From IMG/VR virus record IMGVR_UViG_3300021085_000042, positions 1 through 53,295 of that record: a stretch of DNA of 53,295 bases; one strand, written 5' to 3'. The number at the start of each line of letters is the position of its first letter. Within the stretch, counting starts at the first letter, position 1. Below are positions 7,169 to 44,984 of this stretch, in pieces. The stretch comes from a virus (Duplodnaviria > Caudoviricetes). The notes below the pieces were generated by a model that saw only the letters and a program-made list of their open reading frames with translations, made no database searches and was not told the DNA's origin. Both the position numbers and the translations under genes were made by a program.

Positions 7169-7190
7169 TGTGTAATTAGACTATAGAACC

Positions 7191-13614: not shown

Positions 13615-14073
13615 TTATTTTTTCTCCAAAACATTTTCATTCCCTTCGTGTATCTTTTTTGTGAAAGTCTTTGGGTAGCTGTACACGTGTTTTAATAATT
13701 CATGAACTTTCACATCTGCTTGCATGATATCTATATTTCCACCTACGTTTCGAGCGGCTAACCATCGATGATGTCCGTCAATGATATAGTTATCTTTACT
13801 CACAATCAGAGGTTTTGCTTGACCAAGAGTCTTGATCTTAGCGATTGCCCCTACAATCTTATCTTTGTTAAATTCTTTCTGAATAGGCTTTAAACTCTTA
13901 GCAGGAACCTTAGTCTTTTTCACAGCAACGTTGTTCTTCTTCAGATGCTTGATAAGTCCATCATAATCTTTCGATCTTACTTGAGGCATCTTGTCTCTTG
14001 TAAAACCTAGAGTATCTGTGGACTTAGGTTCATAGACCTTAAGTTCTGACACAAAGTTCCTAAACTTCTTCAT
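13615..14073 (-). CDS. ParB/Srx-like domain protein with capsid-targeting-like N-terminus
   Basis: PLIVSKDNYIIDGHHRW; starts MKKFRNFVSE. Confidence 0.7.
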   Translation of the reverse strand: MKKFRNFVSELKVYEPKSTDTLGFTRDKMPQVRSKDYDGLIKHLKKNNVAVKKTKVPAKSLKPIQKEFNKDKIVGAIAKIKTLGQAKPLIVSKDNYIIDGHHRWLAARNVGGNIDIMQADVKVHELLKHVYSYPKTFTKKIHEGNENVLEKK

Positions 14074-17000: not shown

Positions 17001-17150
17001 AGGATTGATCTCAATCGAATTCTTTACGAGAAGTTCGTCTTTTACTTTCTTCGAAGCCTTCTTTGACTTCTCTGTCTTATCCGTCTTCTTTTTAGAAGTC
17101 GTTTCTTCACCAGAGTTTGCCTCTGGATTATCCATAGAATCATCTTGCAT
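14070..17150 (-). CDS. Cytidyltransferase-like (HIGH) nucleotidyltransferase fused to many small modules
   Basis: GRMNPITVGH, KKNPL, VVGQDR, MSASKMR in the N-terminal ~230 aa, then ~10 modules bounded by x-x-E motifs. Confidence 0.75.
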   Translation of the reverse strand: MQDDSMDNPEANSGEETTSKKKTDKTEKSKKASKKVKDELLVKNSIEINPKLEEAPNKTVVLGWGRMNPITVGHEKLVNKIKSVAKQEGATPLVYVSHSQDAKKNPLDYDDKIMLAKKAFGNIIVKSNSRTIIQIMQELQKSFSKVVLVVGQDRIKQFDELLNKYNGKDYRFDSIKIVSAGDRDPDSEGVSGMSASKMRAAASQGDFKKFKTGLPRRLQGDAQDVYDMVRGGMKIAEMSEQLDEALTIQQRRMRSITMRKFKSKIAQGRRRMAKKAATMDKLKVRARKAAIKVIRKKVAGKKGENYASLSPSEKMLIDKRVAKKKSAIDRIAKKLLPSVRKADLAKLSGKKSANEEFESYIINEEFSNLFEEPTVGQDKDIADRKGTQPAVYHKGLAKSTKVKRDAHFKKGAKMDDDNPDAYKPAPGDAEAKTKTSTHTKRYHQMFNKEGQIKLDRRFRAFRQRKEEVEIAEITINTDAEKRLKRQHKDERQNLSKEHEREMDGLLTRELRKKITQVNKEEFHSDKDLIAFIEETTNDIVDQVTLDEAKGDEGLKKKAEKSGMPLGILRQVYNRGIAAWRTGHRPGTTPQQWGFARVNSFITKSSGTWGKADADLAAKVRGSSKKEEIEEKLKVSDGLGAWIDDFKNSDAPQFAGKSDKKKQQMAVAAFVDAGGKLEEGAVSAAQRAAIAISKKEKAGKPGYDSEGKSLKEDDPCWDSHEQRGMKKKNGKLVPNCVPKNEGAEVYVVKKGPYQRKVDGATADRMKKQGWRIVAREAFEESSTEDLMFEEHFAERSTQDIIRSKLGSITNKKNYQHALKTLTTVLDRKKKESKGKIRHGVGYYAAQIAKSYAGVDGRTLADMVPSDYVFEQGGAGDRGTEKVTKRYKKDTPGETVTESVDDLFEAHFEEEVTQKQLNDLERFADRLLDKFGIDVEFTKHFADRMNDDRNKPAITIAELQRVFKKIAKNKAKNIRQNPDIEAVLKDIQADLNLPIVINYDSEKDEYEVVNKTIMRKKNFGTSSKVIKV

Positions 17151-18655: not shown

Positions 18656-19885
18656 TTACTTCTGCCAGCCCTTAATAAATTCGTCTGAGAAATTTGCTTT
18701 AGAAAATCCCATTCTATCTACAAGCTTAACTGCATTCTTACCCATCCTATCAATTGCAACAAAGCCTTCTTGTTCTGTGACTTTGTATCCATCTTTTGTT
18801 CTTAAGAACGTACCTATGGATTTTGCTTTATCCAGTTTAGTAATGATAAGTAGTTTTACTTCAACGATCATATTATACAATTCAAACAATGCAACAATCT
18901 GAGACTTATCGATATTTGAAAAGTATGACATTACATCTTTTCGTCTCTCTGTCTTACTAGCTTTGCCCTTTTCAGATTTCATCTTATCAATTTCTTTTTG
19001 GTAATACTCGTACATCCAGTCTACCATGTCAGTGACGAACTTAGAAGGATTTGCAATCTTTTCACCTGCACGTACTTTTACGTTCAGATATGTTTTAACT
19101 CTTGTAAGCAGTTCTTCGTTCTCTGTTATGCCATCAAACGTTGCTTTGTTTACTTTATTAAACTGTTTACCAGCGGCAGATAATAGTAGAGTAATTGCAT
19201 CTGTCTCTGTCTGTGTCATTGTGGCATTACCACTCACATCTTTATATACTGCGTCTACTGACCAGACCGATCTCGTGTCTTTGAGATTGCTTGCGATCTT
19301 CTCTCCAAAAGACGCTGACATTGATTCAAAAGATTTTCCTCTGTAGTTAGTGTGCCAAACCACACCGATCTCGGATCTGAGGATTTTAGTAGCAAGTGGG
19401 CTTTTCGCTGGTATAGCGTAAACAATCGTATTAGGATGAAAAGTAATATACGATTCACCATCAATCTGTACTTTCTTAATATCTTTCTTCGCATAGAGGA
19501 AATCACCTTGTATCACTCCTTTAATATTCATAGATGGCAGATGTTTCAGTGCCAAATTTAATTTAATATTCAAATCACCTTTTGTATCAGCATCAACATC
19601 CGCTTTAGTCTTATAGACCTTAGGGTTCTTATTGAAGATACCTTTCTTCGCAACGAAGAACTTACCATCAGAAGGATCAATACCTGCAAACACTGCTGGT
19701 GCTCCATCCCATTTGACAGTCACATTAACTGCGGAACGAGATTTACCTGCCAACATATCACGTAGAGATCGTAGATAGTTTATAGACTGTCTTGCTCCAT
19801 CAACGCCTGCATTTAGCAAGTTATCTTCGAGGTGCTCCATGTGAGTGTTTTTAGCTTCAGTTAAAAATGATGAAAGGCGTTGCAT
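18656..19885 (-). CDS. DUF6267-like protein with ligase-type KxDG motif
   Basis: MQRLSSFLTE-AKNTHMEHLED, TVKWDGAPA, QGDFLY, EGFVA, VKLVDRMGFS resemble nucleotidyltransferase motifs I, III, IV, V. Confidence 0.65.
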   Translation of the reverse strand: MQRLSSFLTEAKNTHMEHLEDNLLNAGVDGARQSINYLRSLRDMLAGKSRSAVNVTVKWDGAPAVFAGIDPSDGKFFVAKKGIFNKNPKVYKTKADVDADTKGDLNIKLNLALKHLPSMNIKGVIQGDFLYAKKDIKKVQIDGESYITFHPNTIVYAIPAKSPLATKILRSEIGVVWHTNYRGKSFESMSASFGEKIASNLKDTRSVWSVDAVYKDVSGNATMTQTETDAITLLLSAAGKQFNKVNKATFDGITENEELLTRVKTYLNVKVRAGEKIANPSKFVTDMVDWMYEYYQKEIDKMKSEKGKASKTERRKDVMSYFSNIDKSQIVALFELYNMIVEVKLLIITKLDKAKSIGTFLRTKDGYKVTEQEGFVAIDRMGKNAVKLVDRMGFSKANFSDEFIKGWQK

Positions 19886-19886
19886 T

Positions 19887-20690
19887 CTATGCTCCAAATA
19901 ATTTCTTTACGTCTTCAGAATTATCGAGGCTATACTTAGACTTGATATTAGTCTTCAATCTGCCTTGACAACGATATCCAGCACCGACAACACGATAGTC
20001 TTCACCTTCAAATTTTCTTGCTTTACTTCCAGATGGTCCCAATCTGAATTCGATATTAACAGATCCTTTGTATTCTGGAACATCTAATTTTAAAGGATTG
20101 CTTCCTAGATAAAAAAGACCTGCTTTACCAATCTGAATGTAATATACGTTCTTTCGGTTATATGCTTTAGCGATTGTTTTCGCTGAGTCAAAAGACTGTA
20201 TCGCATTCATCTTAGTTAAGTAGCCAGCTTTCTGTGCCGCTGACCATGCGTCTTTAGTGACTGAACCGAAAGGTATCGTATATGGTGTTTTTTTGTGGAA
20301 TGCTACAGGCTCTTGCTTACGAATAAAGTTAACCCAATCTTTTAGTGCTTTGTCTTGTTTCTTTGCCGCTTCTATGAAAAATGGAATAGCGTCATCGTCT
20401 ACCGCATCGGGTTTGACTAAAGTGTGGGTCTTATTCTGAGTGTCTATTCTAATAGACGTACCGCCCATCTGAGCATTCTTATCTAATTTAATTTCGATAT
20501 TGAATTCTTTACCGTTGTATAATGCTTCAATATCACCTGCACCTTGATTACTGTATCCTGCACCTGGCTTACTGCCGACATCTAATCCAATCACACCAGC
20601 AGATTTCATTGCATCGAAGACCTTTTTTTCGTATGCTAGTCCTTTTGCACCGACTGATTCGGTAATGAAACTTTTAAATCTAACTGTCAT
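19887..20690 (-). CDS. PD-(D/E)xK nuclease-fold protein
   Basis: GLAYEKKV...GAGDI...NIEIK; MTVRFKSFITE N-terminus. Confidence 0.6.
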   Translation of the reverse strand: MTVRFKSFITESVGAKGLAYEKKVFDAMKSAGVIGLDVGSKPGAGYSNQGAGDIEALYNGKEFNIEIKLDKNAQMGGTSIRIDTQNKTHTLVKPDAVDDDAIPFFIEAAKKQDKALKDWVNFIRKQEPVAFHKKTPYTIPFGSVTKDAWSAAQKAGYLTKMNAIQSFDSAKTIAKAYNRKNVYYIQIGKAGLFYLGSNPLKLDVPEYKGSVNIEFRLGPSGSKARKFEGEDYRVVGAGYRCQGRLKTNIKSKYSLDNSEDVKKLFGA

Positions 20691-22642: not shown

Positions 22643-22798
22643 ATGGGTGCGTGTGAATGTGTAACAACACAAGAGGCAAGTGTGATCGTTTTTAAACAAC
22701 TCACAGAAGGAATAACTGGGGTAGCATCTCGTATGCAGGTGGGGTTCCTCCCAGTCACGCAAACTATTTAGAAAAGGCAGCTTTTAGTTGCCTTTTTT
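22643..22798 (+). ncRNA. Candidate structured small RNA (alternatively a leaderless 42-codon ORF)
   Basis: Bounded by promoter and terminator; nested stems TGCGTG/CACGCA, TGTGA/TCACA, ACTGGG/CCCAGT, GCAT/ATGC. Confidence 0.5.
22772..22798 (+). terminator. Intrinsic terminator, probably bidirectional
   Basis: AAAAGGCAGC-TTTTA-GTTGCCTTTTTT; the G-U pair forms on the plus strand. Confidence 0.75.
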
Positions 22799-23189
22799 AT
22801 TGGGCAGATTCCTTACTAACTTTCGTCTGATAATCTTTTACGGCAGTCTTTATAGCATCTTCTGCAAGGACTGAACAGTGAATCTTTACTGGTGGGAGAG
22901 CAAGTTCTTCGGCTAGTTGTGTATTCTTAACCTGACTTGCATCCTCAAGATTCATGCCTTTGACCCACTCAGTCAGAAGACTAGAAGACGCAATAGCACT
23001 ACCGCATCCATAAGTCTTAAACTTGGCATCAGTAATAATGTTGTTTTCTACCTTAATTTGAAGTCGCATAACGTCTCCACATGCAGGTGCTCCAACCATA
23101 CCAGTGCCTACATTAGGATCGTTCTCGTCCATCTTGCCGACATTTCTGGGATTCTCATAATGATCTAATACTTGCTTACTGTATGCCAT
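22797..23189 (-). CDS. iscU: Fe-S cluster scaffold IscU
   Basis: YSKQVLDHYENPRNVG, GAPACGDVM, FKTYGCGSAIASSS, LPPVKIHCS. Confidence 0.95.
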   Translation of the reverse strand: MAYSKQVLDHYENPRNVGKMDENDPNVGTGMVGAPACGDVMRLQIKVENNIITDAKFKTYGCGSAIASSSLLTEWVKGMNLEDASQVKNTQLAEELALPPVKIHCSVLAEDAIKTAVKDYQTKVSKESAQ

Positions 23190-26397: not shown

Positions 26398-26641
26398 ACA
26401 GTTTCTTTTCAAATTGTTCAATCTTTCCTGTACGATTAGGCCAAAGAATATATTCTTTCTCTGGGTTTGCCTTAAGGCTATTAAGTAGTGGACTAATAGA
26501 GTTATACAACTTGTCCAACTTCGTTTGTAATTGATCAGCAGTGCCACTTGTCTCTGTGATCTGAATGTTTGCTTTTTGTACCGCTTCTAGTTCTGTTTCA
26601 TCGACTGCGGTAAAGCCGAAATCAAATATATCGTCTGTCAT
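26378..26641 (-). CDS. Conserved hypothetical protein
   Basis: FDFGFTAVDE...NPEKEYILWPNR; ATGA overlap with gp43. Confidence 0.7.
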   Translation of the reverse strand: MTDDIFDFGFTAVDETELEAVQKANIQITETSGTADQLQTKLDKLYNSISPLLNSLKANPEKEYILWPNRTGKIEQFEKKLFDIYTG

Positions 26642-29142
26642 GAGAAAAATCCCTCCAATGAGTTTATGTGTTCAAGTTCCCAGTTGATGGCATCAGACAC
26701 CATCTTCAACGGCTCTTTGAACGTTTTGTTAAATTGAGTTTCATAGTCAACATCACTATCTAGACCAAACTCTTTAGGCAAAAACTGCGGAAAAGATATT
26801 ACATTTTCCATCAGAGGATTAGGCACTTTCATGTAACAGAATTTTACCTTACTGCCATTCTTAACTTCTTCTACAGACAAACCATACTTCTTGATCTGTT
26901 GATTAAAGAGAAGTGCGCCTCTGACGTGGATAGGAGTACCTTTCTTATAGATGGTATTCGTATCTCGCCACTTTTCAATGTCACTCACACCACGAGGAAA
27001 TGATACATCTTCAGGTGGTAAAGACTTGAACTCTTCATAGAAGTTCTTCACAAATTCTTGCAATTCTTTCTCTGTAGAGTTAAGCATAATGCGGTACGCT
27101 TTTACAAATTTGTCACGCACCACTTGAGGCGTTGAGGACTTGACGGCTTCAATGCCCATAATTTTGAGTTTTGGTTCTGCGTATTGAACCCCTTCGTTGT
27201 TGTGTACGTTAAGTATATAGCGTTTCTTTGCCATCCATATACCCTTGTCTGCTATAGCTTCACGTGCCATGACCATACGATTGTCGTATGCATTCATATT
27301 TTCAAACATATTGTGGTACGCTTTCTCTAAGATAGGCACCAGTTTTTGTTCACACGCTTGATCGATAAACTTCACCGGATCATTAGGCTTCACTGCCTCA
27401 ACAAGAGGTCCCATGTTAACATATAACGAATCAGTGTCCATAGCGATCACATAATCTTCATCATCAGATTTCAATATGTTATTCATGGCTCTGTTCATAG
27501 CCTGCTCTGCCCATTTGATAGATAGCTGACCAGACAATGTGATGCCTTCTGCGATAACCATTTCAAAGTATCTAAAGTATTGATTACCTAAAGCACCATA
27601 AAGAGAGTTCAGCAAAATCTTAATAGCTTGCTGAGTGTTCTCTAGTATATTTATCTGTCTCTTCAAGTCTGCTGAGTTTTGACCTTCATTTTCTTGCTTA
27701 AGTTTAAGCATCTCTTTTTTGATCACAGCACGTTCATCATAAAGACCAATAATGATAGTTGGGAAAACACCACGCTTATCTTTACGATACATCGAACCAT
27801 TAGCGGCAACTGATAGGTCACGTTCTCTAGGTGCATCAGACACTGGATTCTTTAGATAATGTTCTACACCACTAGCAGTGAAATCATCACCTTTAACTAG
27901 TGTCTCGGGTGACATATTGTACTGCACGATGAGGTTGGGATAAAGTGAGTTTAAGTCAAATGACGTTACCCATTCAGTCATGCCAACTTTAGGCTCTTTC
28001 ACATAACCACCAGGATATGGATCTTTATGCTTGCGAGTGGCAGGTGGCACTGCAATTTTGAGATCGTACAGATATCGATATATGATTGAATCCCATATAC
28101 CAGTTGTACCGAACGCATCATTGTAGTTCACGCCACCTTTGTATGCCACGATCAATGCTAGATCCATCAAACCAGTTTGCTTGTCTATCTTATCAACGAC
28201 TTGAACGTCACGAATATTATAGTCAATAAACTTCTGGTGATTTTGTTTATAGAGTCCATGTAGAGAACCGTATTCAGAGTAAGAAAGTTTCTTCTCACCT
28301 AGAACAACAGACGCTATGTGATCTAATGCATATGATGCCTGATTACCATAGGTAAAACCAAACTTTTGAAACAGGTCAAAGTAATCGACTTGCTGTACAC
28401 CGTATATCTCGTAAGCATCCATCTCTTTGCCTTTGATGCCAATCTTTCTGTACTTTGTGATACCGAAAGGAGAGAACTGCTTTGCTACTTTGTCACCGAG
28501 TATACGAATAGTACGATTGATCATATACGGAACATCGAATAGTCGAATGTTCCAACCAGTTAGAATGTCTGGACAGTTTGCATGCCAAAACGTTAGAAAC
28601 TTTAGCATCAGGTCTTCTTCATTTTCACAAAGACGATACTGTACCATACATCCGTCTAGCTTGAGTTCACAGTCTTCTAGGCGCCATTCGCCAAGACCCC
28701 AAACGTGATACACTTTAGACTTACTGCTTTTGTATGCAATCGAAATGATAGGATGCTTGGCTTCATCTGGCTCTGGGAATCCATCATCAGATGCAACTTC
28801 GATATCGATATTACCAACCTCGATACGTTTTAGATCATATTTGATTTGACCAGGAAACTTATCTTGGATGAATTGAGCAACAAAGTTGTTATTGCCATAT
28901 ATCTTAAAGTTATCTACACTCTCATACTTCTTGACGAATTCAGTCGCTTCTTGCATAGAGTCGAGTTGAATAGGGTCAACAGGCACGCCATCGAAAGATT
29001 TCCAACCACTCTCATTTTTCGAAGATTTAAGATACATCGTTGGTTTGAACGGTATCTTCGTTTGAATGCGTTTACCATCATCCGTGTAGCCACGAAATAA
29101 AATGTTACTGCCATAGCGATTTACGCAGGTATAAAAACTCAT
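26638..29142 (-). CDS. gp43: Family B DNA polymerase gp43
   Basis: DIEV exonuclease motif, FDLNSLYP, KILLNSLYG, DTDS, KKRY; C-terminal clamp motif SLEGFFS. Confidence 0.97.
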   Translation of the reverse strand: MSFYTCVNRYGSNILFRGYTDDGKRIQTKIPFKPTMYLKSSKNESGWKSFDGVPVDPIQLDSMQEATEFVKKYESVDNFKIYGNNNFVAQFIQDKFPGQIKYDLKRIEVGNIDIEVASDDGFPEPDEAKHPIISIAYKSSKSKVYHVWGLGEWRLEDCELKLDGCMVQYRLCENEEDLMLKFLTFWHANCPDILTGWNIRLFDVPYMINRTIRILGDKVAKQFSPFGITKYRKIGIKGKEMDAYEIYGVQQVDYFDLFQKFGFTYGNQASYALDHIASVVLGEKKLSYSEYGSLHGLYKQNHQKFIDYNIRDVQVVDKIDKQTGLMDLALIVAYKGGVNYNDAFGTTGIWDSIIYRYLYDLKIAVPPATRKHKDPYPGGYVKEPKVGMTEWVTSFDLNSLYPNLIVQYNMSPETLVKGDDFTASGVEHYLKNPVSDAPRERDLSVAANGSMYRKDKRGVFPTIIIGLYDERAVIKKEMLKLKQENEGQNSADLKRQINILENTQQAIKILLNSLYGALGNQYFRYFEMVIAEGITLSGQLSIKWAEQAMNRAMNNILKSDDEDYVIAMDTDSLYVNMGPLVEAVKPNDPVKFIDQACEQKLVPILEKAYHNMFENMNAYDNRMVMAREAIADKGIWMAKKRYILNVHNNEGVQYAEPKLKIMGIEAVKSSTPQVVRDKFVKAYRIMLNSTEKELQEFVKNFYEEFKSLPPEDVSFPRGVSDIEKWRDTNTIYKKGTPIHVRGALLFNQQIKKYGLSVEEVKNGSKVKFCYMKVPNPLMENVISFPQFLPKEFGLDSDVDYETQFNKTFKEPLKMVSDAINWELEHINSLEGFFS

Positions 29143-31072: not shown

Positions 31073-31531
31073 TTACTCAGTGAGTAATTCTTTGGTATCC
31101 TGAAGAGTTTTCCCGATAGAAATCTTCTTCGGTTTTTGCTCTTCTGGGATAACGTTTTCTAACAGAATACGAAGCATTCCGTTCTCTAGGGAAGCATCTC
31201 TGACCACTACAGTCTCAGCTAAGGTGAACTTTCTACTGAAAGCACGTGCGGCAATGCCTCTATGAAGATACTCTTTCTCATCTGAGGCATCAGGACTATT
31301 ACCTTCAATGGTAAGTTGCCCGTCTTTTACCTCAATGTCAATCGATTCTTCAGTAAAGCCTGCTACGGCTAATTCCACAATATAAGTTGTATCACTTTCT
31401 TTAGTGATATTATATGGCGGGTATGAGTTCGCTTTTACCTGTCCTTCATTATGAAGTGATGTAATGCGATCAAAAATCCTATCAAAACCTACAGTCGTGA
31501 AAGGGTCGTATTGTGTTTGCAAATAAGTCAT
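31073..31531 (-). CDS. hsp20: Small heat-shock protein (Hsp20/IbpA-like)
   Basis: GFDR, YPPYNI, LAVAGF, YLHRGIAARAF, LENGMLRI. Confidence 0.93.
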   Translation of the reverse strand: MTYLQTQYDPFTTVGFDRIFDRITSLHNEGQVKANSYPPYNITKESDTTYIVELAVAGFTEESIDIEVKDGQLTIEGNSPDASDEKEYLHRGIAARAFSRKFTLAETVVVRDASLENGMLRILLENVIPEEQKPKKISIGKTLQDTKELLTE

Positions 31532-31676: not shown

Positions 31677-32348
31677 CTAGACTCCAGTAGAACCAAATCC
31701 ACCAGTACGACTGGTCTTTGATTGAGGCTCATCATGAACTTCTACAAACTCAAAACTATTATGTTGTATTACTTCAGCTTGAGCAATGCGGTCGCCATCG
31801 TTTACAGTGAACACTTCGTTTGAGTTGTTTATTAGCATAACGTATGTCTGCTGTACATAGTCGGCATCGACTACTCCTTCACAGTTTGCTAATGATATGC
31901 CTTGTTTCCATGCAAGTCCAGATCGTGGATGAATACGCATAGACTGGTCATCGTCTAGATCAAATACTAGTCCTGTGGGAACTAAACATCTCTCGCCTGA
32001 ATATAAGACGAATGATCCATTGTGACAGCTTACTTGTCTCTTATGGTTTACTACATCGATGACCTTAATCATATCTCCGTCTTGCATCGATACCTTAAGA
32101 TCAAAACAGGCTGCCCACTCTGTTCCAAGTTCTGGCATATGGGCTTCTGGAAATAGTTTGTATACTTTGACTTCAACCTTATCGGCTAAATCGGACATCA
32201 CTCTCATCTGATCATCGATACTGCTTTTGATAGTATAGTTAAGAGTATAAGGAATAGATCCATTAGTGTCTAACGTATACGTAGTCGGTGCGTAATTTAT
32301 GGGTGAAGCAAGTTCTGGAAATAGTTCAAGTTGTTGCGAAACGGACAT
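31677..32348 (-). CDS. dut: Trimeric dUTPase with N-terminal extension
   Basis: AACFDL, LVPTGL, PRSGLA, GVVDADY, GDRIAQ, RTGGFGSTG. Confidence 0.92.
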   Translation of the reverse strand: MSVSQQLELFPELASPINYAPTTYTLDTNGSIPYTLNYTIKSSIDDQMRVMSDLADKVEVKVYKLFPEAHMPELGTEWAACFDLKVSMQDGDMIKVIDVVNHKRQVSCHNGSFVLYSGERCLVPTGLVFDLDDDQSMRIHPRSGLAWKQGISLANCEGVVDADYVQQTYVMLINNSNEVFTVNDGDRIAQAEVIQHNSFEFVEVHDEPQSKTSRTGGFGSTGV

Positions 32349-32571: not shown

Positions 32572-32967
32572 TTATCGTTTTTTGCCTATACTATACTTCG
32601 CAATCAATTCCCACTCACCTTTTTCTTTGTGAGGCAGAATCTTAATTTGTGACAATGGAGATGTGGGCTCTTTGATCTTTTCAGAATCAACAGTCTTCAC
32701 AAGATCCCATTCCTCTAACAAAGTAATGATCGTATTTCTACGGGCTTTATCTTCTTCTGAGAAATCGTTAATCTTACCATCTAACATAAACAATTCTTTG
32801 AAGTGTACGATGTAGTACTTACCTTGCTTGTGCAAGATATGGCACGACTGAAACAACTTCTGTTCTTTCTTAGAGGCAATACCTATTCGAGTTAGAGTTT
32901 CTTTAACTTTAAGAAAACTCTCTTCGTTAGGTAGAGTTACCTCTACTAACTTATCTAATAAATTCAT
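32572..32967 (-). CDS. regA: Translational repressor RegA
   Basis: FLKVKETLTRIGIAS...QSCHILHKQGKYYIVHFKELF. Confidence 0.95.
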   Translation of the reverse strand: MNLLDKLVEVTLPNEESFLKVKETLTRIGIASKKEQKLFQSCHILHKQGKYYIVHFKELFMLDGKINDFSEEDKARRNTIITLLEEWDLVKTVDSEKIKEPTSPLSQIKILPHKEKGEWELIAKYSIGKKR

Positions 32968-33359
32968 TTTTTCAAACCACCTGTTTCTTGTTGTTTTTTC
33001 ATAATTTCTAGTTCTCCACTAGACAACAAGGATAGATACTCTTGACCAACTGTTCTATTACATTGATAATAGGCACACACAATATCGAGTTCCTCATTTC
33101 CAGCATTCTTAACCCACTTTGCCCATCGCTTTTTAGGTCTAATGCTATTTATAAGACACTCGTACTGGGGTCGTTTATCCAGTTCGTGATTCATATTCAT
33201 TAGGTTTGCATGTAGAATAGTATCTACATGATACGAAAGTGCATTGTTTACCAACCAAGGCTCGTAGCCTTTTTCTGCCAATGCATCGTTTTCACTGTCA
33301 CGCATCATATTCTTTTTCGTCTGCGTGATAGATGTTACATAATCAAATGGATTCGCCAT
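32964..33359 (-). CDS. gp62: Clamp loader small subunit gp62
   Basis: NPFDYVTSI...YEPWLVNNALSY...RPKKRWAKW; position before regA. Confidence 0.85.
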   Translation of the reverse strand: MANPFDYVTSITQTKKNMMRDSENDALAEKGYEPWLVNNALSYHVDTILHANLMNMNHELDKRPQYECLINSIRPKKRWAKWVKNAGNEELDIVCAYYQCNRTVGQEYLSLLSSGELEIMKKQQETGGLKK

Positions 33360-33543
33360 AATCGACATCCTTATTCACATTAGGCTTGTTCATTTCTTCC
33401 GAACACTTCTTACAAACGTAAGCAGTGCCGGTGCCGCCTTGATACTTATAACGCACTTCACTATAATCTTTACCAATCTTCTTGTTGCACACTAAACACG
33501 GGTGACTTGAAGATTGATTTTTAAACTTACTAAACAAATTCAT
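33343..33543 (-). CDS. Small zinc-finger protein
   Basis: CLVC...CKKC. Confidence 0.55.
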   Translation of the reverse strand: MNLFSKFKNQSSSHPCLVCNKKIGKDYSEVRYKYQGGTGTAYVCKKCSEEMNKPNVNKDVDYGESI

Positions 33544-34004
33544 TTCTTGCCCCTCACGTTCAAGAGCGGGCTAAGTATACGTATCAAAGACTTCTCAATA
33601 TCATCGTGAGAAAGATCAGTCTGTTGAACCAAAGGATACACTCGTATGGTCATGTTAGAGAAGTCTTCACCCCACATAGAACGATACTTAGTTGCGGCTG
33701 GATGCTTCTCATCTGACCTAGACTTTCTGCGGACTTCTTTCACAAATCTACCTAATCTAGTACCCATGCTTGTACCAGACTTTCCGGTATACAAGCAGTG
33801 ATGATCTTTCCATATAGAATAGAAACCACTTTTTTGGTGAATAGGATCAGACTTCTTTTCGAGAATGCCAGTATCATGTGTTAGTTTAAATCCCATCTTA
33901 GTGTCAGGATCTATAGTAATATCGTAGCTAGTATCACAGTATTCTACCAGAGATTCAGCTATATCGTCTGCTGTAAATACGTACTGTCCAAAGAGATTAA
34001 GCAT
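33540..34004 (-). CDS. GIY-YIG-like nuclease domain protein
   Basis: SGFYSIW...LYTGKS...RL, late E and PLLN; TAATG coupling to gp44. Confidence 0.55.
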   Translation of the reverse strand: MLNLFGQYVFTADDIAESLVEYCDTSYDITIDPDTKMGFKLTHDTGILEKKSDPIHQKSGFYSIWKDHHCLYTGKSGTSMGTRLGRFVKEVRRKSRSDEKHPAATKYRSMWGEDFSNMTIRVYPLVQQTDLSHDDIEKSLIRILSPLLNVRGKK

Positions 34005-34951
34005 TACTTCCATTCCACTTCTGCCATTAGAGTTGCAAGTGCGGCAACACGATTGATTTCTGAATTAGCCACGAAAGCTTCTTTGTATTGATATTCGGCA
34101 AGTATGATTATTGAGTCTGCTACGCTTTGAGTAGACGCAATCTTAGATGGAAGAATGTCATACAACTGTCGATATAGAACTGCTGAATCGACATCTTGAT
34201 TTTCAGCAACCCATTTACGAGTACCGGTAAAATTCTTCTCTTTCATCAGGCTGATCAATGCACTTATGTTATCAGTGGATTTACTTGCTAAGATGCCAGA
34301 GTCAATCCTACCAGTAGAAGCATAACGCTGTAGTTCATTAAGGACTCGGCGCCAATCAGGAAAATAAAGTTGTACAACTTCAGCAACAGACTTTTTATCA
34401 TATTCGATGCCCTCATCATCTAGAATACCACAAACTCTTTTAAAGAAGTCTGCGGCAATCTGTGGTTTATCTTTGTTACTTATATTGAATTCGACCACAC
34501 TGCACCGAGAGTGCAATGGCTCAATGATACGATTCTTAAAGTTACAGGTTAGAATAAAGCCACAGTTCTTTGAGAACTCTTCCATAAAGTTACGAAGTGC
34601 TGGCTGTGTTGAATTTGCATTGAGATAATCGGCTTCATCTAGTATAACGTACTTACGTCCACCAGTGAATGATACACTAGATGCAAAGTTTGAAATGTCG
34701 ATACGTAATGTATCAATGTTACCATTCATCGAACCATTAATGGTAATGTAGTCTGCACCAATCTCATTCAGCATAGCCTTAGCTACAGTTGTCTTACCGA
34801 CACCTGCACGACCAGTCAATAGTAGATTAGGAACATTGTTTTGATCAACGAATTGTTGAAATGTAGTCTTCAACTCTTCTGGAAGAATAGCGTCAGCTAC
34901 GGTCTGTGGTCGATATTTTTCGACCCATAAAAAATCATCTTGCATCATCAA
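34004..34951 (-). CDS. gp44: Clamp loader ATPase gp44
   Basis: LWVEKYRP, GRAGVGKT, ILDEAD, LHSRC. Confidence 0.95.
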   Translation of the reverse strand: MMMQDDFLWVEKYRPQTVADAILPEELKTTFQQFVDQNNVPNLLLTGRAGVGKTTVAKAMLNEIGADYITINGSMNGNIDTLRIDISNFASSVSFTGGRKYVILDEADYLNANSTQPALRNFMEEFSKNCGFILTCNFKNRIIEPLHSRCSVVEFNISNKDKPQIAADFFKRVCGILDDEGIEYDKKSVAEVVQLYFPDWRRVLNELQRYASTGRIDSGILASKSTDNISALISLMKEKNFTGTRKWVAENQDVDSAVLYRQLYDILPSKIASTQSVADSIIILAEYQYKEAFVANSEINRVAALATLMAEVEWK

Positions 34952-35356: not shown

Positions 35357-36007
35357 TTAACGAGATTCGATTGCAATCCAGTATTGGACTTTATCGGATT
35401 TAAAGTGTGCCATACCTTTAGAAGACAATGTGACCTCGTAGTCGGTTGGTACCAATTTTAAGTTATCAGTTTTGATGATCATATTAAATGGATCTGTGCT
35501 GACACCTTCAGCAACAACGGTATTGTAATTATCTGCCGTTGATGTTTTGCTGTCGACCGCTGACATGGTAATAGTACTACCATCGCCAATGAAAGCAATC
35601 TCGGGCAATTGAAGAACGCCTGCCGCTTGGCGAACGCTTTCAATATCTTGCCACTTAATATTGACGGATACTTCAGGATCGGGAACGACAATGTCCTTCT
35701 CGGGTGGAGTGACCATCAATGATTCAGATGTATAAGTGTAACGAAGTTCGCTTCTACCACCTTTAATGGTAAAACGATCTTGACCAAATACTACATCTGG
35801 ATTATCGAATAATGCGAGAGTGCTTAAGAACCTGGACAGGTCATAAACACCTGCTTGGGTCTCAACAGTCTCATCGATTGTTGCCGCAGCCATAACTGTT
35901 TTTTGCGGGGATATTGTTCGAACTACTGAACCTGGCTTGAACACAATGCTAGGGTTGATAGTCGAAAAGTTTTTGAGTACGCTCAATGTGTCTGTACTAA
36001 ATTTCAT
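35357..36007 (-). CDS. gp45: Sliding clamp gp45
   Basis: MKFSTDTLSVLKNFSTINPSI, YDLSRFL, YWIAIE; TATAAATA at 36053-36060. Confidence 0.93.
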   Translation of the reverse strand: MKFSTDTLSVLKNFSTINPSIVFKPGSVVRTISPQKTVMAAATIDETVETQAGVYDLSRFLSTLALFDNPDVVFGQDRFTIKGGRSELRYTYTSESLMVTPPEKDIVVPDPEVSVNIKWQDIESVRQAAGVLQLPEIAFIGDGSTITMSAVDSKTSTADNYNTVVAEGVSTDPFNMIIKTDNLKLVPTDYEVTLSSKGMAHFKSDKVQYWIAIESR

Positions 36008-36085: not shown

Positions 36086-36532
36086 TTATGACATATCTCT
36101 CCTGTTTTTTGTTAACTCTTCAGACCTCTCCATTTGCATTCTGATCCACTTAGCGCAATCTTTAGCGCCAAATGCTTCTTCAGCAAGTTCAGGCATTCTA
36201 TCGTCTTCGCCTACACCACGCATAACTGAACTAGATAGCATCAAAGCTCCAGCCATTATCATACAGATGTGAGGTAATCCAGAACCAGTGGGACCATCAT
36301 CATAATCTTTTCGGCGTTCAAAGTCATCGATGTGTCTTTTAAGACTATCAATCATTTGTTGCCAGGGAAGTCCCTTCTCCCAGTTTCGATCTGCATACTT
36401 AGTAGCACCATATTCAAGAGCGGCTGCCCCTGCGGCTAGTCCCTCAAGAGGGAGTTGTCTAAAGTATGGAACACCAATACATTCACGTAACGCACCGCTC
36501 TCTGCGGCTTTGAATTCCTCTTTCTTACTCAT
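36086..36532 (-). CDS. dATP/dGTP diphosphohydrolase-like protein (DUF5664)
   Basis: ESGALR, LEYGATKYADRNWEKG, SLKRH, SGLPH. Confidence 0.8.
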   Translation of the reverse strand: MSKKEEFKAAESGALRECIGVPYFRQLPLEGLAAGAAALEYGATKYADRNWEKGLPWQQMIDSLKRHIDDFERRKDYDDGPTGSGLPHICMIMAGALMLSSSVMRGVGEDDRMPELAEEAFGAKDCAKWIRMQMERSEELTKNRRDMS

Positions 36533-37164
36533 CGTGTAGTTTGCTCCAAATCATTTTCGGCTCTACATATAGCCTGTAATCTAAGAACATCTGCCGCAAC
36601 ATCATGAGAACTATCATGAGCCACAAACGTTCTCTCCCAGTAACCTTCATCTGCGAGTGGAACAAAACCACTTCTAGTTGAAAAGTCAAACTTAGCATCA
36701 ATATAAGTTCTGATGTCACGTACTTTCCAAAACTTCAAGTACTCATTCATCAACTTGTCTTGACCATAAGCATTCATGAGTCTGAACAAAATAACTGGAT
36801 CGAAAGAATTGCCTCTAGACCACCAATAATCAATCTTGTTCTGCTCTCTTAAATATTGTAGTATAGTATCACAAAAAGCTTCGGCTGTCAAGTCACTTTC
36901 GCTAGGAATAATTTTGTCTCTTGCGATCTTAGGAAGATTCTCCCACCAGTGAACATCTGCTTTCTTAAACTTACAGTTGAGATTAGACATCTGATCGGAA
37001 ATAGATAGCTTGACCGATTTAACCTCAGGCACTAACTCTTCGAATGTATATGGATTCTCTGTAAATCTTTCCCATTCAAAAGTTGTGTATGCCATATCGA
37101 CTACAGGGCAAACAAGAACGTCTGCCCCAATAGTCTCAAAATCAAAAATAAAGTGTTTACTCAT
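36529..37164 (-). CDS. dexA: DnaQ-like 3'-5' exonuclease (DexA-like)
   Basis: FDFETIG, WSRGNSFD, RDIRT, HDSSHD. Confidence 0.8.
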   Translation of the reverse strand: MSKHFIFDFETIGADVLVCPVVDMAYTTFEWERFTENPYTFEELVPEVKSVKLSISDQMSNLNCKFKKADVHWWENLPKIARDKIIPSESDLTAEAFCDTILQYLREQNKIDYWWSRGNSFDPVILFRLMNAYGQDKLMNEYLKFWKVRDIRTYIDAKFDFSTRSGFVPLADEGYWERTFVAHDSSHDVAADVLRLQAICRAENDLEQTTR

Positions 37165-38288: not shown

Positions 38289-39827
38289 TCATTTAACTAA
38301 AGTATTTTTCCAGTCAAAGTCTTTTACTAGTTCCATACCATAGTTGTTGGTGCCAGTAGGTCTATCATAGCCAGACTTGAACTTTAGCTTATTAGTCTTG
38401 AATGGACCATAGTCTACAAAGTGATGCCATCTACCATATCTCCAGACAAGTCTTGCCACGTCTGGATGCATGTCAACTAGCATCTGAGACTTATTCACAG
38501 TACCTTCAGTATTGTATCCAGTCTCTTTAAACTCCTCATTCTCAGTGTTCTCAGCATGATAGAATTCAGCAGTATTACCACCGCTCACTGTTTGAGTTGC
38601 GGCTTTACCTTGCATAAACGCATTGAACTGTAGACACGAATCTCCGTCTTTCATCACTCTGAGACAGATATCAGTATCTTCATTATATCTACCACGCCAT
38701 CTATGCTTACAATCATTCCGAATAAGAAGAGTAGAATATATACGGGTGTTGGCAACGTAAGCAGGATACTTTTGATTCGGGTCAATAAAGAACCTATACT
38801 GTGGACCAGCAATGTAAACATTATCATATCTCCCTACGAAGTCTTCCATTACTTGAAAGCCTACACCACTCTCAAATCGAATACGTTCATTATTGTGAAG
38901 TCTATAGAAGTCTGAGATGTTGTCATCTAATACCCAGTGACTTGTAGCACCGATACTGATCGAATGATCCCATGCCCAGTTTCTAGCACGACCAGGACCA
39001 TCTCCGTGATTGGAGAAAGGTGCAACCAGAAGTGTCACGTAATCTCTCATATTGAATACATCAAGTGCTTTATCATAGCTATCGAGGTCTTGAGGCTCAA
39101 TTACTATGTAATGAGGTATTTGCATACGAGATAGTGATCTAGAAGTAAACATTGAATCTGCACGACCCTTAGATACGATATACATCGGATGCTCAGGTAA
39201 AGTTCTACCTTCTGGCTGAATCCAACGTAGTAACAGGTTCTTTGTGATGTGTTGTTCTGGATGCCAAATGCTTTTAGTCTTCTCAGTTATCTCTTGACCA
39301 ATCTTCTGCGAGAACTCTTTATAATCTTCTTCGTTTCTGAAGTTTAACGTAATCGCTCTGAACTTGATCTTGTCCTCTTGAGTGTATTCTGGCATACCAA
39401 CCCAGTGCTTCTTCCAGTTTGATTCATACTCTGATTCAACAGACTTCACTTTACTGAAGCCTGGTCCATTGTATTCTGGAACAAGAAGATCGGCAGATAT
39501 TTCTACCTGTTCATCTTCTTTAATCAACGAGTTTGATGGTGCCGCTGGATACGATGTCTCTTTGACATAGCCAGGAATCATCTGATTGATCTTAGTACAA
39601 AAATCTACCATATCATCTTGCGTTCTAAAGTGAACGTAGATTGATTTCCAGATATCGTTCTGCACAACTTTCTTGACTCTAGTAGCATCTACTAGCTTGT
39701 CAGGAATAGGCTCATCAAAAAACTTATCTAAGCTTATGCTGTAAGAGTCATTCTTACGTGCCTCATCATCCATGTAGTTATCGTAGTTGGCACTTTCTTC
39801 GATCATGGGTTTTGTGTTATCTGTCAT
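38289..39827 (-). CDS. GREB1/TAGT-like GT-A glycosyltransferase with duplicated N-terminal domain
   Basis: PMYIVSKGR, IVIEPQD, GPGRARNWAW, HWVLDDNI, RYNEDTD, GGNT. Confidence 0.75.
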   Translation of the reverse strand: MTDNTKPMIEESANYDNYMDDEARKNDSYSISLDKFFDEPIPDKLVDATRVKKVVQNDIWKSIYVHFRTQDDMVDFCTKINQMIPGYVKETSYPAAPSNSLIKEDEQVEISADLLVPEYNGPGFSKVKSVESEYESNWKKHWVGMPEYTQEDKIKFRAITLNFRNEEDYKEFSQKIGQEITEKTKSIWHPEQHITKNLLLRWIQPEGRTLPEHPMYIVSKGRADSMFTSRSLSRMQIPHYIVIEPQDLDSYDKALDVFNMRDYVTLLVAPFSNHGDGPGRARNWAWDHSISIGATSHWVLDDNISDFYRLHNNERIRFESGVGFQVMEDFVGRYDNVYIAGPQYRFFIDPNQKYPAYVANTRIYSTLLIRNDCKHRWRGRYNEDTDICLRVMKDGDSCLQFNAFMQGKAATQTVSGGNTAEFYHAENTENEEFKETGYNTEGTVNKSQMLVDMHPDVARLVWRYGRWHHFVDYGPFKTNKLKFKSGYDRPTGTNNYGMELVKDFDWKNTLVK

Positions 39828-40915
39828 GTAAAAAACTCCGTTAAATCTGAACGAGATTTATTCTTATCACTATAGCGCATATCGATTACTTTGTCAATAC
39901 AAGATTTCCACTTAGACAAACTATGTTTCTCTCGGGTCATCTCTGCGATTTCATCTCTACGGTTTTTCATCGTAATAGCGAATTCTCGTACAGTTGTTTC
40001 AAACTCATCGCTTGAACACTTTCTGTTAATCTTAAAGTAGTGTGACCTGCTAGCGGCAACGATTTCACTCGCATGAATATCGTTATCACCAGTCATTAGA
40101 ATAGTAGGTACACCACAGCCTAATGCTTCCATTGCAGTGATTCCCCACGATTCTTTAGGCCAAGTAGAACAGAAAACTTTCGATCTAGAGATGTGTTCTA
40201 TGACCTCGCTGTGAGGTAGACCTCTCATAGTATGTCTAGGTTCTGTCCAGTGCTGATTGTCCTGTACATAGTCGTTCACTGTTGAACTTTTATATACACC
40301 ATCGTTAGTCATCACAAGACTATTTAGGTCGGACGAATTTCGTAGTTTTTGATGTATCAAGAATGGTGCCTTTTCGTTGTCACATCTACCTACAGTCGAT
40401 ACATCGTAGATAAGGTCAGATGAATAAGGCATATCATCTGGCAAGAATGACGGGTTGATGAAACCTTTGATTGCACCGAACTGCACATCTTTGATACGCT
40501 TTGCCATATTTCGATGAAACTCTAATTGATCTGGACTTACAAAGTAGATATGGCAACCACTATCATTCAAATCTCTAAGAATGATTCCAAGTTCTACCAT
40601 ACGTATGTCCCGCACAAGTGGTTCATGCATAATACAAATTAATGGTACATTAAAAGACATCATCATGTTCGACCACCAAGGGTTATTGAACAGAATCATA
40701 TCTGGATCATGCAATGCTATCGCATCACGGATAACTCGCTTGGTTTGCCTATTCTCTTTATCTTGCTTAGTGATAGCTACAGGTATAATACCATCGATAT
40801 TATCTTCTAAGTCTTTACAAAACTTTTCAATTCCGCCAGTAATAACTTTACCTTTAGCGGAGTTGTCAGTCTTTACAACTTCAAAGTGGGTTGAGTAAGG
40901 CAGAAGTATCTTCAT
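39824..40915 (-). CDS. GT-B fold (GT4-like) glycosyltransferase
   Basis: GGIEKF, VGR...K.P, ESWGITAMEALGCGVP (Ex7E). Confidence 0.8.
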   Translation of the reverse strand: MKILLPYSTHFEVVKTDNSAKGKVITGGIEKFCKDLEDNIDGIIPVAITKQDKENRQTKRVIRDAIALHDPDMILFNNPWWSNMMMSFNVPLICIMHEPLVRDIRMVELGIILRDLNDSGCHIYFVSPDQLEFHRNMAKRIKDVQFGAIKGFINPSFLPDDMPYSSDLIYDVSTVGRCDNEKAPFLIHQKLRNSSDLNSLVMTNDGVYKSSTVNDYVQDNQHWTEPRHTMRGLPHSEVIEHISRSKVFCSTWPKESWGITAMEALGCGVPTILMTGDNDIHASEIVAASRSHYFKINRKCSSDEFETTVREFAITMKNRRDEIAEMTREKHSLSKWKSCIDKVIDMRYSDKNKSRSDLTEFFT

Positions 40916-41367
40916 TTATTTTTATTCACGAAATCCGACTCAGCCCACACTACACTTTGACGTAGATTGGAAGATGAAAATCTGTGGTCTCTATTGTTGA
41001 AATGTAGATCGATGTCTAGTTTGTCACAAACTTCTCTACCTGTGAAATCTTTGTCTTTATATTCGTCACCCAATATTCGAACATCAATCTTGTACATCTC
41101 AAGGATATCAAGCAAATCTCGTTCGGTAGAATATACTACTATCTCGTCCACATACTTAATGGCAGATAGTTGAGTATAACGCTCAACAATACTTTGGATA
41201 GGAGAGTTCTTCTTTGGTCGATCCACAGAAGGATCGATTTGCAGACCACATATCAAGTAGTCACATTGATTTTTCGCTTCACGTAACATCATCACATGTC
41301 CGGCATGTAACAAGTCAAACGTACTAGCAGTGAAGCCTACTCTTTGTATATTCATAGTGTTTTCCAC
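40912..41367 (-). CDS. Cytidylyltransferase (TagD/RfaE-like)
   Basis: TFDLLHAGH, YLICGLQ, YVDEI, RILGDEY, SSSNLR. Confidence 0.88.
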   Translation of the reverse strand: MENTMNIQRVGFTASTFDLLHAGHVMMLREAKNQCDYLICGLQIDPSVDRPKKNSPIQSIVERYTQLSAIKYVDEIVVYSTERDLLDILEMYKIDVRILGDEYKDKDFTGREVCDKLDIDLHFNNRDHRFSSSNLRQSVVWAESDFVNKNK

Positions 41368-41399
41368 GTGTCTTGCCTTCCTCTCATATTATAGATTGT

Positions 41400-41428
41400 A
41401 TCATATCACATTACAAGGTGCCTGTCAA
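41400..41428 (-). promoter_or_regulatory. Sigma70-type promoter for the glycosylation operon
   Basis: TTGACA-N17-TATGAT. Confidence 0.7.
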
Positions 41429-44412: not shown

Positions 44413-44984
44413 TCTTTTTCCTCTTTCGTTTTATCCTCATCGATGAACTTCTCTAAGCCTTTCTTGGATTTGGTCTGGGCTTTCTTCTTGTCTTCCATCT
44501 TCTTTTCGTATCCACGAACAAAGTCGGTCATGTAGTCATTATTCAAATCGATATAAGCAGGTTCACCATTAGTGTCAACAGTGCCTTCTGCACGATCAAC
44601 AGCAGTGCCAGTCATAACAGAATTCTCTGTGACCTTATGTTTGATATACAGTTGCTTCTTCTCTTTCTCAATTCTCCGCAGAAATGCGTACCAAATAATC
44701 TGTGTAAAATAAGCAAACGGATTATGGGACTTGTTCGGATCAAAGTTACCTAGTGCTTGTATCGCATTCTCCAAACCATCGCTGATCATCTCATCTTTAT
44801 ATGAGTAGCCAGAGAAGTTAGGCTTAGATGCAAGCCTAGTAGATATCTGATAGATACACTGACCTATATAGTTGGGTATCTGTGGTCTTTTGTCACCCGA
44901 GTCCTCTGCTTCATTGCATAGCTTTTTATATGCTATGATAGCTTCCAGAAACTCTGGATTGTTAACGTAATTTCTCTTTGCCAT
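44409..44984 (-). CDS. gp55: Late sigma factor gp55
   Basis: NYVNN, PNFSGYSYKDEMISDG, NPFAYFTQIIWYAFLRRI. Confidence 0.93.
   Translation of the reverse strand: MAKRNYVNNPEFLEAIIAYKKLCNEAEDSGDKRPQIPNYIGQCIYQISTRLASKPNFSGYSYKDEMISDGLENAIQALGNFDPNKSHNPFAYFTQIIWYAFLRRIEKEKKQLYIKHKVTENSVMTGTAVDRAEGTVDTNGEPAYIDLNNDYMTDFVRGYEKKMEDKKKAQTKSKKGLEKFIDEDKTKEEKE

Follow-up and report, generated by a model that had tools for sequence, protein, structure and literature searches.

Polymerase-like candidate clamp-binding motifs on the two glycosyltransferases of a T4-like phage module

In phage T4, the C-termini of gp43, gp55 and gp33 are clamp-binding epitopes that combine hydrophobic and acidic residues; in the sections of PMC2988020 that treat them, these epitopes are interchangeable, sit on unstructured linkers and still function when internal, and the RB69 clamp has been crystallised with the last 11 residues of its polymerase. 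According to the relevant sections of PMC13216743, the T4 alpha-glucosyltransferase co-purifies with the gp45 clamp and the beta-glucosyltransferase does not, a TAGT-family enzyme of T2 and T6 adds the second glucose of gentiobiosyl-5-hydroxymethylcytosine (hmC) in DNA, and a solitary TAGT gene occurs in 288 of 753 phage genomes. Here we describe a three-gene module of a marine T4-like phage, in the IMG/VR virus record IMGVR_UViG_3300021085_000042 (analysed whole, 53,295 bases; hereafter the window), formed by a small nucleotidyltransferase, a GT-B-fold glycosyltransferase and a GT-A-fold TAGT protein, in which both glycosyltransferases carry a short motif resembling the end of the phage's own DNA polymerase. 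The best explanation overall is that the module encodes replisome-tethered glycosyltransferases, a reading that we hold to be probable by a modest measure.

The window belongs to a T4-like phage, as family searches and gene position establish. Its module lies on the minus strand between gp46 and gp45, within what is the replication cluster in T4-like phages, and most of the 80 T4-like loci found with a TAGT alignment have the gene in the same slot. The three open reading frames (ORFs) overlap by ATGA at both junctions, read directly from the sequence, which bears out the layout given in a first-pass annotation of this DNA:

40912..41367, minus strand: small cytidylyltransferase-like nucleotidyltransferase, 151 aa, with an HxGH motif (PF01467, 53 bits, cut-off 21)
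39824..40915, minus strand: GT4-type GT-B glycosyltransferase, 363 aa (PF00534, 28.1 bits, cut-off 26.4, marginal)
38289..39827, minus strand: TAGT-family protein, 512 aa, with a disordered N-terminus, two small beta-alpha-beta domains and a GT-A domain
38292..39203, minus strand: GT-A catalytic domain of the TAGT protein, residues 209-512, with D301 and D302 invariant in 29 sequences

The family labels first attached to these genes also hold, strongly for the TAGT protein (PF20691, 136.3 bits, cut-off 27.5, residues 214-416) and marginally, with support from a structural model, for the GT-B. The predicted GT-B model (predicted local distance difference test, pLDDT, 90.9) has a two-Rossmann fold whose best matches are BshA, MshA, PimA, sucrose-phosphate synthase and the glycosyltransferase of phage HY126, and both glutamates of its EX7E motif (E255 and E263) are invariant in 42 GT-B sequences. 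Family match, predicted fold and EX7E motif agree on a retaining GT4-type GT-B enzyme, an assignment that is marginal by score but real. DNA and protein searches with the GT-B (including tblastn) returned no match among 50,697 phage records, and neither PF11440 nor PF09198, the families of the T4 alpha- and beta-glucosyltransferases, is among the matches of the window proteins at E <= 0.01. The TAGT model (pLDDT 80.5) reveals a GT-A fold that matches SpsA, GnT-I, ColGalT1 and LH3, and its D301/D302 pair presumably binds metal.

The two candidate motifs, the two replication-protein motifs with which they compare and the proposed docking partner are placed as follows:

39827..39850, minus strand: SDLTEFFT, C-terminal tail of the GT-B, candidate gp45-binding epitope (tail residues 350-363 at low model confidence)
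39714..39737, minus strand: ISLDKFFD, residues 31-38 of the TAGT protein, candidate gp45-binding motif (pLDDT <50 at residues 32-36)
39768..39800, minus strand: EESANYDNYMD, conserved N-terminal box of the TAGT protein, residues 10-20 (E11 and Y15 invariant in 29 sequences; present in 114/120 homologues)
26641..26664, minus strand: NSLEGFFS, C-terminal tail of gp43, reference clamp-binding epitope of the phage
44442..44459, minus strand: GLEKFI motif of gp55, ten residues before its C-terminus
35357..36007, minus strand: gp45 sliding clamp (PF09116), proposed docking partner

All four motifs stand in the proteins exactly as they were first quoted. The gp43 end follows [ST]LE[DGS][FL]F-x in the window and in 8/8 related records, and GT-B homologues end in peptides that mirror it (SLESFFS, SLEDFFS and SLENFFND), in relatives that are only 35-50% identical; the corresponding tails in the T4 record are ASLDFLFG and SLDFLYEAND. 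Conservation in homologues, on which the proposal had been staked beforehand, was counted in the best 120 GT-B and best 120 TAGT homologues with shuffled residues as the null (the last 30 residues for the GT-B), and it lies far above the shuffles. Ends matching [LIVM]xxF[FLIMY]x0-3 close 57/120 GT-B homologues, against 1.4/120 after shuffling, and the same pattern closes none of the 120 TAGT C-termini. The TAGT motif sits instead near the N-terminus: among the 114 homologues with the box, 97 have LxxF[FLIMVY] at residues 15-50 (10.3 shuffled) and 87 have the strict pattern (0.6 shuffled). In 29 aligned sequences (50-92% identical), conservation reaches at least 90% at L33 and F36 although the residues around them vary, and both motifs fall in low-confidence, linker-like stretches of otherwise confident models. 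Judged by sequence, the GT-B tail and the TAGT motif are conserved short linear motifs of the gp43-tail type, and they fit the description of a gp45-binding epitope as a short, hydrophobic-acidic, gp43-like terminal peptide on an unstructured and variable linker.

The same tail recurs on other proteins. Among the 2028 ORFs with >=100 aa that the window and fetched loci contain, a census found 99 ending in the tail pattern; several loci overlap on the same contigs, so these counts are not independent. The 99 include 24 GT-B, 17 gp43 and 7 gp55 proteins, together with 12 members of a second TAGT paralogue family (~282 aa), which adjoins TAGT in loci devoid of the GT-B (two gave 32.6 and 40.5 bits on scanning, with the cut-off at 27.5, and a common N-terminal sequence assigned the remainder). 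Four are N6/N4 DNA methylases (three scanned: 119.4, 118.7 and 28 bits), five are proteins with a S-adenosylmethionine (SAM)-methyltransferase domain beside TAGT (three scanned), and around eleven more look like real proteins without a clear role, one FkbM-type methyltransferase. From these sequences the tag is clearly portable, and would mark enzymes that act on DNA. A primase-like ORF of the window (6110-7171) carries TLEFLL at the very N-terminus, in part ahead of the TTG start given for it; though a T4-type LDFL-like pattern, this is probably chance.

Ahead of its catalytic domain the window TAGT protein has two small folded units, at residues 61-93 and 157-189 of the model, which follow the box and the motif:

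39549..39647, minus strand: first small beta-alpha-beta domain, residues 61-93 (strand 61-67, helix 70-80, strand 90-93)
39213..39410, minus strand: second small domain (adaptor), about residues 140-205, with W..HW.GMPE...KTKSIWHP

This is the fused form of an arrangement that most of the 80 T4-like loci keep in two pieces, with a separate adaptor ORF of 108-123 aa (~200 aa in two loci) upstream of a ~300-aa TAGT gene; the adaptor ORF combines the ES..Y.N box and the LxxF motif with a small beta-alpha-beta domain, and at one locus (L090) the GT-B gene stands between the adaptor and TAGT genes. The best Pfam match of the N-terminal 209 residues, PH_PRMT_N, is sub-threshold (18.2 against 27 bits), and adaptor matches in the Atlas score <0.9 with no family attached, leaving the domain without an established name. 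It is nonetheless abundant, with 1893 relatives at E <= 0.001 among 50%-identity cluster representatives, mostly of 65-250 aa. Scanning viral contigs with these small relatives, we found the adaptor fused to or adjoining a TAGT catalytic gene in 79/79 further loci, and the neighbours of the pair in non-T4 phages are helicase, DnaB-like, ERF, RusA, VRR-NUC and DNA-methylase genes.

The adaptor relatives provide what we regard as the best evidence for clamp binding, read from sequence: a switch of motif class with the type of clamp. Many of the small relatives start with QxxLF[DE], placed so that four to ten residues separate it from the domain, and the bacterial beta-clamp consensus is given as QL(S/D)LF in the relevant part of PMC9690074. 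We sorted 122 distinct adaptor N-termini by whether their flanks include T4 core genes. Where they do (n=52), none has the Q-type motif, 34 have the gp43-type and 51 have the ES..Y.N box; where they do not (n=70), the respective numbers are 34, 10 and 15. Shuffled N-termini yield <=1.7 for either motif, and the association of motif class with flank gives Fisher p = 7e-11 and 1e-8, values that overstate independence because the adaptor sequences are related. A gp45 profile matched 0/50 non-T4 records (14 of them at >=90% complete) against 3/3 T4-like controls. The class of the adaptor peptide thus follows the clamp of the replisome, a pattern for which an explanation other than clamp binding by the peptide is difficult to find. 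The ES..Y.N box itself precedes the motif in 51/52 T4-context adaptors and in only 1/34 Q-type adaptors. Cultured Aeromonas phage Aeh1 has a related arrangement (L012, 5911-7310), in which the 66-aa Aeh1p092 comes after the TAGT homologue Aeh1p093 (399 aa). Aeh1p092 resembles the small beta-alpha-beta domain and ends GLASLFDI, with Aeh1 gp43 ending ASLSDLFGDM; on this likeness Aeh1p092 is possibly a clamp-tagged adaptor in a cultured phage.

Our proposed mechanism begins with the flexible C-terminal tail of the GT-B and the N-terminal adaptor of the TAGT protein, each of which would present an [ST]L-x-x-F-F peptide, as the gp43 end does. By analogy with T4 and RB69 the peptide would dock on the gp45 sliding clamp, and the clamp would hold both enzymes on newly replicated DNA, the most likely target of glycosylation. 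The GT-B would then add a first sugar and the TAGT enzyme extend it, by analogy with T2 and T6; we place this two-step order below the DNA substrate in confidence. The nucleotidyltransferase would play an accessory part, increasing the amount of activated sugar available, with a hexose-1-phosphate as the probable starting material.

DNA is the substrate that we favour, with considerable room for doubt, since the T4 alpha-glucosyltransferase, the T2/T6 TAGT enzyme and the phage arabinosyltransferases are precedents and the genes stand in a replication context. Glycosylation of hmC, 5-hydroxycytosine (hoC) or 5-hydroxymethyluracil (hmU) is the only documented chemistry for such enzymes. The window has neither a dCMP hydroxymethylase nor a Tet_JBP gene, as the first-pass annotation had stated, with one correction: a gene of the thymidylate synthase family is present, and it is an ordinary thymidylate synthase that keeps the QRSAD and PFN active-site stretches of solved thymidylate synthases.

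4745-5623, minus strand: thymidylate-synthase-family gene, canonical ThyA (361 bits to TIGR03284)

Two relatives (41% and 53% complete) have only a canonical-scoring ThyA and no Tet_JBP, and a complete T4-like genome of 149.6 kb (G005) has neither family. Among 50 other records with an adaptor-TAGT pair, the ThyA family occurs in 0/50 and Tet_JBP in 1/50, and both are absent from the 14 that are >=90% complete. The only other acceptor lead is a single 2OG-Fe(II) oxygenase in G005. The TAGT family was reportedly named by Iyer et al. in 2013 for its genomic association with TET/JBP dioxygenases. That association is missing from the window, from five larger T4-like records and from 49/50 of the other adaptor-TAGT records. 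Either an acceptor enzyme goes unrecognised, or the sugar is placed on a target for which no phage-made hydroxyl is required, or the enzymes act on something other than DNA. It would be a considerable extension, which we think rather unlikely though worth stating, for the adaptor-TAGT pair to be a widespread form of replisome-coupled DNA glycosylation that does without a phage-made hydroxymethyl- or hydroxy-pyrimidine; if true, it would be an undescribed DNA sugar chemistry that acts at the passing fork, for instance on a canonical base, with a gp45-type tag in T4-like phages and a beta-clamp-type tag in many small phages. The TAGT catalytic domain is 67-77% identical across one series of loci (L034-L092) in which identity to the window's proteins is just 31-48% for gp45 and ~40% for gp43; conservation so far above that of core replication proteins could reflect recent spread or an unusually constrained substrate.

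On sequence the 151-aa nucleotidyltransferase is probably a nucleoside diphosphate (NDP)-sugar or cytidine diphosphate (CDP)-alcohol synthase. It belongs to the PF01467 superfamily: its LLHAGH stretch aligns with the HxGH of ethanolamine-phosphate and glycerol-3-phosphate cytidylyltransferases, and the nearest solved chains are ethanolamine-phosphate cytidylyltransferase and TagD. Two specific identities were tried and rejected against NCBIfam equivalog cut-offs, namely TagD (glycerol-3-phosphate cytidylyltransferase, 67.6 against 165.4) and RfaE domain II (heptose-1-phosphate adenylyltransferase, 78.6 against 181.5). Polyol-phosphate, one of the two kinds of donor proposed at first, fits poorly with the relatives, in two of which (L018 and L015) a PF03332 phosphomannomutase gene (99.5 and 66.3 bits, respectively) lies directly upstream of the nucleotidyltransferase, suggesting activation of a hexose-1-phosphate instead. 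Gene content suggests that the nucleotidyltransferase adds to the host's donor supply rather than defining the chemistry, and any specific donor earns less confidence than the DNA substrate does.

Several observations weigh against replisome-tethered DNA glycosylation. The window is only an estimated ~30% of the genome. The nucleotidyltransferase is no fixed part of the module, contrary to the first proposal: it is absent from five relative loci (L008-L010, L020 and L021) and stands elsewhere in many others, between gp55 and gp47 or near uvsX, without the GT-B. Tail-less GT-B relatives occur in T4-like contigs that have gp45; across 37 GT-B loci, 13 have a tail and adjoin TAGT, 10 have a tail and do not, 1 adjoins TAGT without a tail and 13 have neither. 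The tail pattern is not specific, since two T4_baseplate proteins (one scanned) carry ISDFFS-like tails, and about 17 of the 99 census matches look by eye like spurious ORFs. In the T4 record neither the alpha-glucosyltransferase, which does bind gp45, nor the beta-glucosyltransferase has a gp43-like motif, which means that the T4 precedent does not account for the motif. No hydroxymethylase or hydroxylase of ThyA type and no TET/JBP enzyme was found in 15 near-complete TAGT-bearing genomes, so that glycosylation of hmC, hoC or hmU is unsupported here. Lastly, GREB1, a member of the TAGT family, O-GlcNAcylates a protein, as the relevant portion of PMC7968844 describes, and a predicted gp45 complex adds little by itself (below). 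Regarding tails, we also tried and abandoned a rule that GT-B enzymes lacking one come from phages lacking gp45: a distant and partly tail-less clade of the same family (30-35% identical; loci L105-L126), about half of it clamp-tailed, is likewise found in T4-like contigs. This clade lies between gp43 and uvsX, which is the position of beta-gt and gene 42 in T4.

GREB1 and the missing hydroxylated-base pathway speak for a reading in which the motifs bind the clamp while the enzymes O-glycosylate a protein at the fork (the clamp, a polymerase accessory or a host factor) in the manner of GREB1, and a TAGT domain that stays ~70% identical where gp45 is only 31-40% would suit a non-phage substrate under strong conservation. 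DNA methylases carry the tag too, however, the characterised phage member of the TAGT family acts on DNA, and the GT-B fold resembles that of DNA glycosyltransferases, though this fold serves many substrates; we consider a protein substrate improbable.

The second alternative concerns what the peptide binds. For TAGT residues 1-60 together with three gp45 chains, the complex prediction, built on our own alignments, scored 0.56 against 0.32 for the best of three controls, with runs that agree in >=54% of contacts and a partner pLDDT >=43. In calibration the passing mark was reached by 58/80 solved complexes and 2/110 mismatched pairs, and scores <=0.60 took in 7 of those 80 and both passing mismatches; because the RB69 clamp-polymerase peptide structure is already solved, the score may also be partly recall. 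This single weak pass would leave space for the shared peptide to dock on another part of the replisome (the clamp loader, the helicase or the single-stranded DNA-binding protein) or to join the two transferases to each other, as would the second conserved box, ES..YDNY, that precedes the motif, and the T4 alpha-glucosyltransferase, which binds gp45 with no such motif. Set against this, the motif is that of the gp43 tail in every related record read, a tail that serves as clamp epitope in T4 and RB69, and a beta-clamp-like QxxLF replaces it in phages without a gp45-type clamp, so we rate docking elsewhere as distinctly improbable. The first interpretation is supported in part: the motif switch, the tags on DNA methylases and the disordered linkers speak for enzymes that ride the clamp, with the complex prediction as the weak member, and tethering of both transferases to the clamp is in our judgement likely.

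The last alternative, an envelope-remodelling 'moron' acting on lipopolysaccharide, teichoic acid or capsule, for example in superinfection exclusion, with a coincidental likeness of motifs, is very unlikely: a small cytidylyltransferase with a GT4 and a GT-A enzyme is a typical envelope-glycan set and the content of the gp46-gp45 slot varies among relatives, but the motifs are conserved far above shuffles, the tag is common to gp43, gp55 and DNA methylases, the adaptor-TAGT pair recurs in replication modules of very different phages, and inspection of the sequences by eye (no predictor was run) noted no signal peptide or membrane segment.

Expression of the module was first ascribed to one promoter. 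A candidate does precede the first gene, and a second site of equal score lies before the TAGT start, so that a single promoter is not certain:

41400..41428, minus strand: sigma-70-like promoter candidate, TTGACA-17-TATGAT, TG-extended, upstream of the cytidylyltransferase gene (11/12, consensus match only)
39869..39897, minus strand: further promoter-like site, within the 3' end of the GT-B gene and shortly before the TAGT start (11/12, consensus match only)

Promoter-like sites in the window are not above shuffles (10 against 12.5 +/- 3.3).

Every recognisable gene of the window lies on the minus strand. Family searches identify portal, scaffold and major capsid proteins; clamp gp45, clamp loader gp44, UvsX and gp41; UvsW, the sigma-like gp55, DNA polymerase gp43, ligase and dUTPase; and, for nucleotide metabolism, thymidylate synthase, dihydrofolate reductase (DHFR), dCMP deaminase and ribonucleotide reductase. 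The names gp46 and gp47 come from T4-like position and matches to T4-like contigs, without a family search, and no PurZ-like gene was seen among the window ORFs scanned. The nearest cultured clamps, from Sinorhizobium, cyanobacterial and Pelagibacter phages, are ~40% identical to the window gp45. A DUF465 ORF sits between gp46 and the module, and six further ORFs separate the module from gp45. Two of the genes by the clamp overlap: a 148-aa protein (36086-36532) matching the N-terminal domain of dATP/dGTP diphosphohydrolase (PF18909) and an Rv2179c-like 3'-5' exonuclease gene (36529-37164), a pair that relatives keep beside gp45. A 157-aa ORF with a weak GIY-YIG match (33540-34013) is wedged between gp44 and the small subunit of the clamp loader:

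32964-33368: clamp-loader small subunit

Further away, a 1026-aa protein (14070-17150) joins an N-terminal cytidylyltransferase-like domain to DUF5824 and is syntenic in several T4-like contigs with a DUF6267 protein (18656-19897, 373 bits). The dUTPase (31677-32348) has an extra N-terminal extension of ~110 residues, its Pfam match covering residues 113-222 of 223. Auxiliary and mobile genes comprise a NifU-like gene (22797-23189, 178 bits), Hsp20 (31073-31531) and a SegE-type GIY-YIG endonuclease (697-1143).

Whether restriction, CRISPR and other defences succeed against a phage is decided by hypermodification of its DNA, and such modifications also supply tools for epigenetic chemistry; how the modifying enzymes reach all new DNA is largely unexplained outside T4. 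The present locus suggests a testable rule, that in many phages the glycosyltransferases and methyltransferases bear a tag for whichever clamp their replisome uses, either on the enzyme itself or on a small adaptor. Such a tag would serve as a sequence signature with which to pick DNA-directed enzymes among unannotated phage transferases, and the finding draws attention to numerous TAGT enzymes that must use an acceptor other than the customary hydroxymethyl pyrimidines. Given the published interaction of the T4 alpha-glucosyltransferase with gp45, the idea of clamp riding is not new. Our literature search, which lay outside subscription journals and supplements, found neither a polymerase-type clamp tag on phage glycosyltransferases nor a TAGT clamp adaptor in print, and in its broader form met only the T4 work cited above; as far as it reached, the explicit polymerase-like tag on glycosyltransferases and the TAGT with a clamp adaptor, both identified from sequence, appear to be new.

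Comparison with the known systems places the locus among several of them. Like the T4 alpha-glucosyltransferase, encoded between genes 47 and 55, the window GT-B is a GT-B enzyme encoded in the replication cluster, and the T4 enzyme binds the clamp and is thought to act with replication (PMC13216743, in its citation of Sommer et al. 2004). The two are otherwise unalike: by Pfam and tblastn alike the window protein shows no sequence relation to the T4 enzyme, and it is GT4-like with a polymerase-type tail where T4's has no gp43-like motif. The beta-glucosyl-HMC-alpha-glucosyltransferase of T2 and T6 belongs to the same PF20691 family as the window TAGT, has a GT-A fold and is paired with a GT-B, which in those phages makes the first sugar that the TAGT extends (so described in the corresponding part of PMC13216743). 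It is a distant relative, T2/T6-type records not being among the 23 phage records matched by TAGT tblastn, and differs in that the window TAGT has a 208-residue N-terminal adaptor and that a dCMP hydroxymethylase was not found in the window or in complete relatives.

The arabinosyl-5-hydroxycytosine systems of RB69, DLP3 and HY126 are likewise phage clusters of GT4-like glycosyltransferases and sugar-activating enzymes. Alongside the HY126 glycosyltransferase, our GT-B model matches structures 3mbo, 6kih, 3c4q, 2gej, 7fg9 and 7qsg, the solved structures that Table 1 of PMC13326640 lists for the DLP3 and RB69 DNA arabinosyltransferases. In the pertinent sections of that paper, arabinosylation depends on a ThyA-homologue 5hodCMP synthase with a D169N signature, whereas the window ThyA has retained the Asp (QRSAD); the nucleotidyltransferase of those systems has a MurU-like fold and is joined to a kinase, unlike the small cytidylyltransferase-like protein of the window. 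The main text of PMC13326640 does not use the word 'clamp', and no clamp tag is reported in it for these systems. The likeness to the bacterial beta-clamp motif QL(S/D)LF belongs, on present sequences, to relatives rather than to the window protein, namely to adaptor homologues with QxxLF[DE] from phages that lack a gp45-type clamp.

The closest parallel of the motifs themselves is with the gp43, gp55 and gp33 epitopes of the T4 family, which are likewise hydrophobic-acidic peptides on variable linkers. Here the carriers are glycosyltransferases and methyltransferases rather than a polymerase or transcription factors, and the TAGT motif is N-terminal and internal; both window motifs are nonetheless near-identical to the tail of the phage's own gp43.

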